Shown here piece after piece: positions 8,001-55,249 of a stretch of 64,000 nucleotides of DNA. The stretch comes from Octopus vulgaris. Taxonomy: Eukaryota. A program made the translations under genes and the position numbers. The first letter of the stretch is position 1, and every line of letters begins with the position of its first letter. Under the pieces are notes generated by a model that was not told the DNA's origin, searched no databases, and saw nothing but the letters and a program-made list of their open reading frames with translations. The DNA is taken from contig OX597831.1 of NCBI GenBank assembly GCA_951406725.2, forward strand, positions 71,734,001-71,798,000, written 5' to 3'.

Positions 8001-8050
8001 AGGCTTGAAAGGTGTAAAGAGATCCCTCCATATGAAACCATTAGTAGCCT
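8001..8050 (+). ncRNA. Degenerate minimal hammerhead-like motif, putative U3-A8 core
   Basis: AGGC-TTGAAAG-[stem II]-GAA-ACCATTAGT-A-GCCT; stem I AGGC/GCCT; second copy at 37880-37947. Confidence 0.45.
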
Positions 8051-8304
8051 TGTTAACCAACAAATAAAGAATATTTATCCTCCAATGCGGCACTGAGCAC
8101 TCATTGTCACTGTTCTATATTAGGGTGTATACATAATACATACATACATACATAACTACATACATAATACATAACATACATACATACATAAAGTTAAAAG
8201 AAAATGGAGAAGAAAAAAATATATAATAGATACTTGGTTCATTTTATTTGTATCACAATGGGAAAATAATGCAAAGTAAAGTGATACCTATAAGAATATG
8301 GAAT

Positions 8305-8585
8305 ACGAGGGTCCCAGCTGATACGATCAACAGAACAGCTTGCTCGTGAAATTAACGTGCAAATGGTTGAGCACTCCACAGACACGTGTACCCTTAACGT
8401 AGTTCTCGAGATTCAGTGTGACACAGAGTGTGACAAAGCTGGCCCTTTGAAATGCAGGTACTTCTCATTTTTGGCAGCTGAGTGGACTGAAGCAATGTGA
8501 AATAAAGTGTCTTGCTCAAGGACACAACGTGTCGCTGAGAATTGAACTCACGATCGTGAGCCGAATGCCCTTACCACTAAGCCGT
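8305..8585 (-). mobile_element. SINE family C (CORE-like head, tail 2)
   Basis: Minus strand: GGCTTAGTGGTAAGG A box, GTGTCCTTGAGCAAGACACTTTAT core; tail shared with the 45368 copy. Confidence 0.8.
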
Positions 8586-10357
8586 ACTAAATACACAACC
8601 GAAAGAGCTACTATTAGTTTCATGCTATTATGATACTTGAACAGGCATATTTATAAAATGCGCCACCTTTTTTGTAATCTGTGTTTGCTGCTTTGCGAAC
8701 ATGGCTAACGTCAGCAGTTTTGACTACAACATATAAATATTACTGATCGCAAGTAGCAGGTATTATAGAAGCGGATCTCCATCCTTGGCCCAATGCCATA
8801 TTTATCAGTTGTCGTCTTGACGTAGATCAAGCCTGATCGAGCTGACTAATACTCAAAGGCGTTCCAGTCATGTTCAGTCTGTCAATGTATATTAGTAACT
8901 ACACTCCCCAATGTACTCTTCATTTTAGATGGAAGAATGTGATTTGAGGATGGTTTGGTTGTTAATTCACGGTCGCTCTTCGCAGAAATTGAGAGAAGAA
9001 TAGAGTAAAGAGAGTGAGCTTCCAGTAAATAACAGTTTAAAAATAAATCCAACAAAAATATCCCAGAAATATGTGACATAGAAATAAAGACTGCAGAGTA
9101 AGCTGTTAACGACTCATTCGCGCAACCTTTGCTTCGTGTAACGTTTTCCTTGATGGCATGGCTGCAGCTGCTATACCTGTGATCATGGATTTGCTTGTAC
9201 AGAACTAATCTAAAATTTAACGGCAAATACAACAACAACAACAACAACAACAACATCAACAACAGCTCCTTTCCCTTTATATAACAACAAATAATGACTT
9301 TAAAATGAGCATCAATTACATGAAAGGAAAAGAGGATATGTAATGAATAAACTCTTTGTACATAGTTTTATCGAGATACGAAGTGGTAAACAGTTTGTTA
9401 AATATAATAAGATTTGAACGTGGATTCGATAGTGTTGGAAGTAAATAGTAATTAGTAAAAGTAATTAGGCCAACATGTTGATATGCCATCTGTCAATGGC
9501 CTTTCTAATCTAAGCTTTCTTGAATGACAAGGATTTACATAAATAGATGGTAAGCAAATCCTGTTTTGGCAGCTATTATTAAACTGGTGAAAGATAAATT
9601 TGCTACCGATTAGAACGCAAAACTATGGCAGTCAGCTCCTCGCTGGAGGAATTCAACTTAACTCTGCAAATCAAGGAAATGTGTTATCAATTAAACGATG
9701 TTGCAACTGATTACAGCTTTGAATTATACAAGCTTGTGTCATACATTGTGTCAACCTTTTAGAGTGACGTGGTTCAAATATTATTTGCGTCCCCTTCACG
9801 AAACCAGCCACACTCTATCTTTCTACACGCAACTAATCTTGTCTTTAATAATGCTGTCCACTGTTCAAGCGTTACATATCCAAACAAGACCTTTAAGAAG
9901 AGTATTCAGCCGATATACAGATTCCGGCCCCAAAGAGCCCTTCCCCGCTAAAACACTCACAGTTCATTTTAATTTTGAGCTCACATAATGCTAGTTCTGG
10001 CCGTTAAGCCTTTAAAAACAAAGATAATCACAGTTTTGAAGTCTACTTCTCCATGCTTGCATTAGTTAGACGGAAATTTTTAAGGCTGATTTTCGACTGT
10101 CGGATACTCGTCCTGTCTCCAACTTTCGCCAGTTTCTATGCAAGGTAATATTTCCCCCATAAATAGACATATTTTCACAAAAGACTGGAAACGAGCGACA
10201 CCATTTTGTATGATGGTGATGTTCTTTTACAATTGTTGAACGATGCCGAGACGCGTGCGCGCACACACACATACACACGCACATACATGCGCATATACAG
10301 ACATATGTGTGTGTGTATATATATATATATATATATATATATATGTATATATATGTG

Positions 10358-10475
10358 GCTTACGGCCATATCACGTTGAAAGCATCGGTTCTCATCCGAT
10401 CAACGAAGTTTTGCAACATCGAGCCTCGTGAGTACTTAGATGGGTGATCGCTTGGGAAACCTAAGTGCTGTAAGC
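10358..10475 (+). pseudogene. 5S rRNA pseudogene
   Basis: 118-nt GCTTACGGCCATATCACGTTGAAAGC...GTGCTGTAAGC with pairing ends; internal control region altered (GAAGTTTTGC, AGATGGGTGATCGC); solitary copy with no oligo-T terminator directly after. Confidence 0.9.
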
Positions 10476-10490
10476 GACTCACTCTTTGTA

Positions 10491-52521: not shown

Positions 52522-52995
52522 ACTCTTTACTCTTTTACTCTTTTACTTGTTTCAGTCATTTGACTATGGCCATGCTGGAGCACCGCCTTTAGTCGAGCAA
52601 ATCGACCCCGGGACTTATTCTTTGTAAGCCCAGTACTCATTCTATCGGTCTCTTTTGCCGAACCGCTAAGTGACGGGGACGTAAACACCTAGCATCGGTC
52701 GTTAAGCAATGCTAGGGGGACAAACACAGACACACAAACACACACACACACACACACACACACACACACACACACACACACACACACACACACACACACA
52801 CACACACATATATATATATATATACATATATACGACAGGCTTCTTTCAGTTTCCGTCTACCAAATCCACTCACAAGGCATTGGTCGGCCCGGGGCTATAG
52901 CAGAAGACACTTGCCCAAGATGCCACGCAGTGGGACTGAACCCGGAACCATGTGGTTGGTTAGCAAGCTACTTACCACACAGCCACTCCCGCGCC
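52522..52995 (-). mobile_element. SINE family A
   Basis: Full-length reverse-complement copy. Confidence 0.9.
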
Positions 52996-52999
52996 TGTA

Positions 53000-53303
53000 T
53001 GTATGTATATGTGCAGATTTGTATGTTTTGTTTCATGCATGCATATCTAGACATATTTAAATGATGAACTTCTGGAGAGTTTTACAGATTTCCACAGTTC
53101 CAGTGATGGACTGGATTTGAAATCTTCGAATTAGCTTTCTCCTCTCTGAATTTGAGGACCCTAATTTCTCAAGATTGGCATTTATGCAGTGTGTTACATA
53201 TCCCAGAGCCCCGATAGTTACAGGTATAAACCTGAACTTGTAATTTGGATAGAGTAACTGCAAATTTCTCAATAGTTCAGCGTATGTATTCTCTTTTACA
53301 CTG
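53000..53303 (-). pseudogene. 5'-truncated R4/Dong-type non-LTR element 3' end
   Basis: KENTYAELLRNLQLLYPNYKFRFIPVTIGALG...QSITGTVEICKTLQKFII*; homologous to the 48460 copy; flanked by (CATA)n. Confidence 0.8.
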
Positions 53304-55163
53304 TATGTATGTATGTATGTATGTATGTATGTATGTATGTATGTATGTATGTATGTATGTATGCATGCATGCATGTATGCATGTATGTATTTATGTATGT
53401 ATGTATGTATGTATGTATGCATGCATGCATGTATGCATGTATGTATTTATGTATGTATGTATGTATTTATGTATGTATGTATGTATGTGTGTATGCCCAT
53501 TATATACGCCACAAGGGAAACATGAGTGTATCCTGGATTTTCAGTTGTGTGGTCTAGTTAATTACGTTAATTACGCTGGAGTTTAATTAAATATGTGACC
53601 TAATAGGTGGGCCCATGTTAGGAGTGTTTACGGTGGGTTCCGCCTGTTTATTTGAATTTAATTCTTATATCTTATACATACATACATACATACATACATA
53701 CATACATACATACATACATACATACATACATACATACGTGTGTCTATGTGCAATATGTGTGTGTGAGTGTGCGCGCGCGCGTATATATTTATGGGTGTGG
53801 ACGTGATTGAAAATGATGTAAACCCGAGTTAATAATCTCACTTCATAACCATGACATCTCTCGTTCGATTCCGCTGCATTTCGGGAAAATTACTTTTACC
53901 ATTGCTATAGTTGATTTATACCCTGTGTGCGAGTTTAGGTCAACAAAAACTACGTAGAAGCCTCATAGCTGAACTGAATTTCTAACCGAAAGGGTCAGAG
54001 TTGCCACACATTTTGTTACACCGATTCTGTTGAAAAATGAAGTCGTTAAATATACAGGTGTTTGTGAGATACTCGGCCACTTACAGTAAAAATCAATGAG
54101 CAGAGAGCAGGAAGTTCAGTCGAATAAACAATAGTCGAAACCGATGGAGATCCAAAAGTTTTACTGCTCTTACAACTAATCTGTGTTCTCGTGTTTCGTT
54201 GGTCTTTGAAGTAGGAACAATGGGGGCTATTTACTATAACCAGGTTCCAAAGTAGATAGCAACATTGTCGAGGGGCATTCTCAGACTCTAATCAGTCGGC
54301 CAAAAGCCAATTTAAAGAATATCCACATAAAATGGAATTCACAGATACATTTTAAAATATTCGAAAAGTTTTCTATTTCACGTTTAGTGTGTCTATGTGC
54401 ATGTGTGTCTATGTGCATGTGTGTCTATGTGCATGTGTGTCTATGTGCATGTGTTAGTTAGAATATGTGTATCGTATATAAATTTATATTTATGCATTCG
54501 AATGTATATCTTATATATATATATATATTTATTTATATTTATATACATATATATAATACGAGTATATGTCTGTGTGTTTATATACATACATGCACACATA
54601 TAGGAAATATATATATACATTTATGTATATGTGTTTGTGTGTGTTTATATATGTATATTTATGTACGTATATCTATCTATCTATCTATCTATCTATCTAT
54701 CTATCTATCTATCTATCTATCTATCTCTCTCTCTCTCTCTCTCTCTCTATATATATATATATATATATATATATATATATATATATATATATATATATAT
54801 ATATATATATATATATATATATATATATATATATATATATATATATATATATATGCATGTATGTATATGTATATGTATTAAAGTATTAACTTGAAAGAGA
54901 CAACTTCCAACGTCAATAATACTCCTTATCAAAGCTGACAGATATCTAAACACAGAGGGCATATATAAGCCATTATAAGCAAACGAACACATAGCATATA
55001 CAAAAACATATATATACATATAATAGTGTAATTCCGTACCCAAATCAAAGTCGGATAAGTAAGTGCATAAATGCATACAGATATATTAAGAAGTCTAAGC
55101 TGATGAGATGACAGTTTACAATAATCCAAAAGGGAAGTCCTCAAATGAATCCAAAAAATAGAG

Positions 55164-55249
55164 TCTTACGGCCGTTTCTGGGAATGCGCATAGAAGTGTG
55201 TAGGTAAAACCTTTTGAACTTCAGGAATCCACATTTCCTTCATTAGAGA
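55164..55249 (-). ncRNA. Decayed hammerhead-like motif (G5A) with long stem II loop
   Basis: Minus strand TCT-CTAATGA-A-GGAAATGTG...CGCATTCCC-A-GAA-ACGGCCGT-A-AGA. Confidence 0.5.

Follow-up and report, generated by a model that had tools for sequence, protein, structure and literature searches.

Short octopus repeats with minimal hammerhead motifs, probably end-pieces of Penelope-like elements, include a family with a natural G3–C8 core

Introduction

The DNA analysed here, a stretch of 64,000 nucleotides of Octopus vulgaris (assembly GCA_951406725.2, contig OX597831.1, positions 71,734,001 to 71,798,000), hereafter the window, contains several families of short non-coding repeats bearing motifs that resemble minimal type I hammerhead ribozymes, and raises the question of what these elements are and whether their fold has been kept by selection. 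All together, the data presented below indicate that they are probably the 3' end-pieces, or pseudo-long terminal repeat (pLTR) segments, of several Penelope-like element (PLE) lineages, copied in trans by a Penelope reverse transcriptase (RT)/GIY-YIG protein. An earlier note on this DNA had described such elements and had proposed a Penelope-derived or retrozyme-like origin; its observation proved real in substance and was confirmed in part.

The window is animal DNA with a GC content of 37.6% and repeat families of octopus type; simple repeats make up 23% of it. Octopus repeat surveys name Penelope, Dong-R4, Tc1-mariner and short interspersed elements (SINEs) of 5S and tRNA type, and the words hammerhead and ribozyme are absent from the passages of these surveys that entered the comparison (PMC13282606, PMC8967140). 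The other cited papers were likewise compared through passages, and such motifs may be listed in the supplements of PMC3088659, of PMC8557442 and of the octopus surveys.

Results

Hammerhead motifs in the window

The window was searched with a type I descriptor that specified a Watson–Crick 3–8 pair, at most one change among U4, G5, A6 and A9, a palindromic stem III and UH. The descriptor returned six sites, against a mean of 0.47 (maximum 3) in 60 dinucleotide shuffles. Once stem lengths were judged by a combined threshold, the number rose to nine sites, against a mean of 1.23 (maximum 6) in 200 shuffles, and no match in the reversed window; the strict G3–C8 class occurred in none of the 200 shuffles. 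The nine sites belong to six unrelated families, where the earlier note had counted at least six sequence-distinct ones. No hammerhead family was present among the best 150 of 495 Rfam matches.

A site-by-site audit found every core word and stem III word quoted in the earlier note where it had been placed (Table 1). Specifically, core, GAAA and UH, together with a type I arrangement of helices I and II, are complete at 30881/30858 and, with the 3–8 pair swapped, at 32797; five more sites show the type I core and helix order with one change, while 37884 lacks it. All invariant core bases are present solely at 30881(+)/30858(−) and 32797(−), that is, in two families, and single-change cores comprise U4C at 11472, 32997 and 37656, A6U at 17960 and G5A at 55246. 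Helix III, which had been described as always palindromic or nearly so, is palindromic at 10 of the 11 audited sites, with a single mismatch at 8005. An unpaired base between positions 9 and 10.1 is evident in families A, A2, C and E and is not clear in B, D and F. Co-folding of two copies gave a dimer fold in one of five cases tested (30881). Three motifs had been overlooked earlier, at 28403(−), at 11074(+) and on the second arm of family B at 30858(−).

Five further palindromes (18455–18775, 28052–28221, 38777–38894, 5217–5270 and 40996–41052) gave no strict descriptor match; they resemble miniature inverted-repeat transposable elements or may be inverted PLE ends. At 8621(−), 28986(+) and 44191(−), GAAA and a palindromic stem III resembling those of families B, D and F accompany an unrecognisable core, and these are probably decayed copies.

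Table 1. Positions of the repeat families, hammerhead motifs and target-site duplication in the window
Feature	Position	Strand	Description
Family A copy	11340..11488	−	5'-truncated; core CCGACGA (U4C) at 11472; extra A; stem II GAGC/GCUC; stem III ACGU
Target-site duplication, left copy	11489..11503	−	TA-rich word of 12–15 bp, of which the final 3 bases may represent microhomology to the element
Target-site duplication, right copy	11325..11339	−	
Family A copy	32874..33085	−	Core CCGACGA at 32997; 3' end abuts (TA)20
Family A copy	37614..37779	+	Core CCGACGA at 37656; (TA)n on both sides
Family A2	17903..18023	+	Core CUGUAGA at 17960 (A6U)
Family B	30725..30947		Near-perfect palindrome 30793–30946 within (TA)n; intact hammerhead on each strand (30881+, 30858−)
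Family B, decayed paralog	10937..11140		Core CCGGUGA at 11074(+) (U4C, A6G)
Family C	32614..32833	−	Pure (TA)n on both sides; hammerhead 32804–32755; core GUGAACA 32797–32791 (G3–C8)
Family D	7970..8126	+	Core UUGAAAG at 8005 (U3–A8, A9G); one stem III mismatch; decayed
Family D-like	37846..37990	+	Intact stem III (ACCA-A-UGGU); no fold is closed by the claimed core UUUAAAA at 37884
Family E hammerhead, single copy	55164..55249	−	Core CUAAUGA (G5A) at 55246; long stem II region; stem III ACGGCCGU
Family F hammerhead	28355..28407	−	Site 28403; stem II of about 10 bp, interrupted by a single bulge; stem III ACUA-U-UAGU; A9 changed or deleted
Family G copy	11518..11669	−	
Family G copy	35621..35792	−	
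Family G copy	37260..37432	+	
Family G copy	62944..63115	−	

Insertion anatomy

The three copies of family A share a constant 3' end and differ at their 5' ends; over 137 bp, the 37656 and 32997 copies share 96% identity. The copy with its core at 11472 sits inside a family G element and is flanked by a target-site duplication, and three family G paralogs of this locus preserve the empty site. A duplication flanking a 5'-truncated insert, together with an empty site, is the footprint of target-primed reverse transcription. Family A thus combines 5' truncation, a fixed 3' end and a target duplication, and the duplicated TA-rich word at 11472 indicates that at least one TA-rich target predated insertion. 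Family A2 resembles A in its 3' flank and in stems II and III. A piece that shares the 5' part of A2 and lacks the hammerhead lies between two (TA)n tracts at 38575–38667(−).

An inverted 5' copy, in turn, is displayed by the two family B palindromes, and family C shows opposite-strand joints. The family B motif (30881/30858) has a C3–G8 core and a stem II of 2 bp with an A·A mismatch at its base; in a read-through RNA, it is predicted to be buried in a hairpin of −124 kcal/mol. As to the surroundings of the elements, 6 of the 11 sites have a (TA)≥6 tract no more than 100 bp away, compared with 12% of unmasked positions (binomial P 8e-4).

The motif type beside Penelope-like proteins

Outside the window, 22 of 64 metagenome parts were scanned with a family A-type pattern in which core positions 3–7 were left open, yielding at least 120 loci. 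After deduplication, C(U/C)GANGA was found in 57 of 76 low-GC matches (33 CUGANGA and 24 CCGANGA) versus 0 of 34 high-GC ones. Remnants of PLE proteins precede the motif on its own strand at loci L068, L008, L055 and L025/L105 and, more weakly, at L106, a U4C copy, and L118; they lie on the opposite strand at L018, L009 and L012. At L068, a frameshifted Neptune-type PLE at 1375–3627(−), with RT, linker zinc finger and GIY-YIG-like end (E 1e-106), is followed about 670 nt downstream by a minimal hammerhead; its endonuclease half escaped Pfam. The main family among these loci is nearly identical to a coral PLE motif printed in the supplement of PMC4209133. Among the outside loci, U4C tracks a subfamily (19 of 20 versus 1 of 16, in groups drawn after inspection), which points to an inherited variant recurring in distant animals.

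Family C and its natural G3–C8 core

The best single fold in the window is that of family C at 32797, a hammerhead with an extra G, a stem I of 7 bp, a stem II of 5 bp and stem III AAUAUU, with a predicted cut after 32762. The element carries an optional 58-nt 3' tail (32671–32614); a second 3' end at 32671–32673 is followed by TA-like sequence, as judged from loose ends with about 50% agreement.

At least half of 43 sampled words of region 32614–33085 were present in 18 public runs (four organisms, eight studies); runs X19 and X20 had shares of 0.07 and 0.05 and did not enter the alignment. Four of the 18 runs, which like all 24 listed consist of contigs rather than raw RNA reads, were aligned to 32606–32842 at 80% likeness, and contained from 1,397 to 9,817 family C contigs per run; the summed contig depth does not equal copy number. 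At a threshold of 5%, these alignments show 21 variable positions, all of which lie outside the core, GAA and stem III and spare position 17. The single stem I variant changes U–A to a U–G wobble, three variants lie in loop II, and one stem II variant (1–5%) breaks its pair. Furthermore, loose ends at 32777 in three runs disclose a subfamily with a different loop II, in which stem II and the G3–C8 core are kept. In conclusion, G3–C8 is a family trait of this high-copy family and its natural majority state. Such a core is predicted to retain a degree of cleavage. Measured against its flanks in the element, the constancy of the core is not significant (0 of 17 versus 16 of 141 positions variable, P 0.22), and may be inflated by the clipping of unlike contigs.

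Head-to-tail joints connect 32777 to 32673, and 32804 to 32685 or 32677, at a depth of 6–119 compared with a summed element depth of 10^4 to 10^6; opposite-strand joints are of likewise very low depth. Scans of viral contigs for families C and A gave no match.

Remaining families and neighbouring repeats

The 8005 copy of family D matches the descriptor only when one stem III mismatch is permitted. The 37884 site has a G5U change, its stem I is interrupted and stem II is missing beside the claimed core; no strict descriptor matches it. The two copies align at U3 and A8 behind similar 5' flanks, making a U3–A8 family behind these decayed copies plausible. Scans of genome and viral contigs for family D produced four matches, which resemble chance prokaryotic ones. 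Letter for letter, family F has the stem III of the Hydra PLE motif in the supplement of PMC4209133.

Three of the four copies of family G have an identical first base and open with GAAAC and a strand like that of stem II; a word resembling CUGANGA comes about 25 nt further on. We considered family G as a type II hammerhead and rejected it, given the lack of helix I and covariation in 0 of 16 predicted pairs. The family has the hammerhead halves in swapped order and is possibly a rearranged PLE end.

The window also holds SINE-like families, Tc1/mariner pieces and a weak RT fragment. A full-length 5S rRNA-like copy (Rfam, 76.6 bits) at 10358–10476(+), with a SINE-like repeat directly after it, is a possible 5S-derived SINE. 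Broken Tc1 and mariner transposase pieces recognised by Pfam lie at 22760–23710(+), 49387–50201(+) and 60550–60879(+), and an unclassified repeat of about 900 bp is present as inverted copies at 18849–19724 and 55850–56809 (identity 84–93%). A broken non-LTR RT fragment (weak RVT_1) occupies 57800–59100(+), and a probable endonuclease-end fragment adjoins (TACA)n at 53057–53446(−); both fragments may be R4/Dong-like.

Discussion

Origin of the elements

The target duplication, the fixed 3' and variable 5' ends, the inverted pairs and the presence of the motif type behind PLE open reading frames (ORFs) in contigs from other animals support the part of the earlier proposal that saw non-autonomous, Penelope-derived elements. 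Several results weigh against this origin. A profile of 105 PLE proteins, which is Neptune-type so that other PLE clades may escape it, found no PLE coding remnant in the window (best E 4.7). No family is tied to an RT/GIY-YIG ORF within these 64 kb. BLASTN matched none of the window hammerhead elements to the outside loci, so that the motif type is shared and not the element. Only one target duplication is readable among the window elements. As to the (TA)n tracts, the circular-shift test of adjacency is borderline (100/1730, about 0.06), and the ends of a tRNA-SINE-like control lie equally near (4 of 8 within 150 bp), with other SINE ends at 5 of 19 and 4 of 16. The earlier statement that most elements lie in or beside (TA)n holds as a count, and the adjacency is of moderate strength and shared by other repeats. 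The targeting of TA tracts by Penelope-type elements retains moderate support, the bias itself being previously known for PLEs.

Two other protein searches of the window bear on the same point. When the 105 PLE proteins were compared with the window by tblastn, matches at 61262–61423 (E 0.003) and 36238–36468 (E 0.027) appeared; both were rejected, having no adjacent hammerhead and being unseen by the profile. Pfam, run on 298 of 347 stop-free segments plus two others, detected Tc1/mariner pieces and a weak RVT_1 only; this negative is weak, as the PLE C-terminal half P0001 likewise went undetected by Pfam.

Alternative explanations

Chance folding in an AT-rich, repeat-rich window would account for the fact that a loose descriptor, with two core mismatches and no 3–8 rule, yields 99 rows in the window, and for the failure of 37884 to fold. 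Moreover, counted by family, the margin is narrower, since six independent families equal the maximum among the 200 shuffles. Nevertheless, the shuffles average far fewer sites than the window, none of them contains the strict G3–C8 class, and the extra base, the repeat membership and the PLE linkage of the motif type co-occur though the descriptor did not ask for them. Chance is therefore largely refuted as an explanation, and we regard it as extremely improbable. The elements could instead be non-LTR retrozymes, tandem hammerhead repeats with abundant circular RNAs that reinsert. Their size range and type I topology would fit, family C has a few head-to-tail joints, and a 2026 preprint derives retrozymes from PLE pLTRs in the part compared, so that the classes grade into each other (10.64898/2026.07.22.740005). 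However, the window is devoid of direct tandem copies, the family C joints are very shallow against the depth of the element, and the motifs are minimal rather than canonical, the latter having a 6-bp helix I with loop contacts (PMC7229834, PMC4209133). On these grounds the retrozyme half of the earlier proposal is not borne out, and we judge it highly unlikely.

A further alternative sees the short elements as independent SINE-like parasites that cleave actively and whose hammerhead is selected within the non-autonomous lineage, for example by freeing the RNA from read-through transcripts. It draws on the absence of variants at 5% or more in G3–C8, GAA and stem III of family C in four runs, on the wobble as the sole stem I variant, on the loop II subfamily that retains stem II and core, and on the association of U4C with a subfamily in other animals, in groups defined post hoc. 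Against it stand the non-significant core constancy, perhaps aided by contig clipping, the ends of the elements, which do not fall at position 17, and the predicted burial of the family B motif in read-through RNA. In addition, 9 of the 12 audited motifs carry a core lesion or U4C, which argues against selection within the copies. This alternative appears unlikely, and the derivation from PLE 3' ends remains the explanation that we prefer.

Mechanism and selection

In the preferred reading, the PLE protein would bind RNAs bearing the pLTR end and nick AT-rich or (TA)n DNA, and target-primed reverse transcription would start from near the RNA 3' end. Short copies would retain the hammerhead, since it lies within about 70–140 nt of the 3' end in families A and C. 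In master elements, cutting by the ribozyme would be slow and would involve a dimer joined at the palindromic stem III, probably with the assistance of the PLE protein, and G3–C8, U4C and possibly U3–A8 may be tolerated lineage variants that were fixed in masters and then amplified. Most of the loci are likely inactive as ribozymes, being predicted silent because they are solo copies without a tandem partner and, in the case of family B, because the element folds back on itself.

The earlier note had further argued that the occurrence of three different 3–8 pairs in one window reflects selection on the fold. For G3–C8 this gains weight from its status as a family trait, and the double transversion, which preserves the pair, hints at, without proving, a role of the fold and selection on it in the master lineage. 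It is weakened by the U3–A8 pair, which amounts to two decayed copies, and by the core constancy test. As most copies carry core lesions, any selection most likely acted on master elements and not on these copies. That an abundant, non-autonomous Penelope-derived family runs on a natural G3–C8 hammerhead which still cleaves and is kept by selection across subfamilies is a tentative proposal, and one that we hold with more doubt than belief. If true, the G3–C8 family would be a natural test of why PLEs keep slow hammerheads that are dispensable for insertion in vitro.

Comparison with known systems

PLE end-pieces with minimal hammerheads are already known to abound in animal genomes, and U3–A8 is published. 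In the passages compared, metazoan PLE hammerheads are described as type I motifs with a helix I of 3–5 bp, an extra base after A9 and a palindromic helix III, occurring as many families per genome, mostly as solo copies and with opposite-strand pairs, in hosts that include Lottia and Crassostrea; the U3–A8 core UUGAAAA is listed for a Schistosoma PLE (PMC4209133). The window motifs match those of Cervera and De la Pena (2014) in the extra base 9/10.1, the short helix I and the palindromic helix III (PMC4209133). They differ in that the window families are so far without a tie to an ORF, and the G3–C8 words GUGAACA, GUGACCA and GUGAUCA as well as CCGACGA are absent from the portion of supplement text compared, in which cephalopods are unlisted.

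Among PLE clades, Neptune and Naiad elements are reported to show 5' truncation, an inverted 5' copy, an optional tail, a microsatellite or (TA)n bias and non-autonomous derivatives (Craig et al. 2021, PMC8557442). Family B has a similar inverted 5' copy, while the tail measures 30–40 bp in that report and 58 in family C. Naiads are without canonical hammerheads in the passages compared, which present them as having died out long ago in cephalopods (PMC8557442), so that a hammerhead-bearing clade such as Neptune would be the likelier driver. The animal non-LTR retrozymes of Cervera and de la Pena (2020) are short, non-coding type I hammerhead repeats in tandem arrays, with canonical motifs and circular RNAs (PMC7229834), whereas the window copies are solo and minimal.

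For the anole Poseidon element PAc, AT-rich nicking and a tail signature are described, and its hammerhead needs protein to cut, the cutting being dispensable for insertion in vitro (Frangieh et al. 2024, PMC11167929). An engineered C3G/G8C double change in PAc partly restores cleavage (PMC11167929); family C presents G3–C8 naturally. Natural U3–A8 is known, and U4C is known from a viroid, slow in vitro yet viable (Perreault et al. 2011, PMC3088659); G3–C8 is unnamed in the text passages on natural core variants of that paper. In the passages compared, natural G3–C8 was not found in print and only engineered uses were (PMC3884650, PMC11167929, PMC8495972); the survey of PLE hammerhead variants by Lunse et al. 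(2017) may report G3–C8 or U4C.

What the window adds to these systems is a natural, amplified G3–C8 core and a recurrent U4C core. Both are invisible to CUGANGA searches, hence genomic hammerhead counts are likely too low. The kept 3–8 pair bears on what PLE hammerheads are for, and the motif helps to assign short repeats classed as unknown or as SINEs to a PLE origin.

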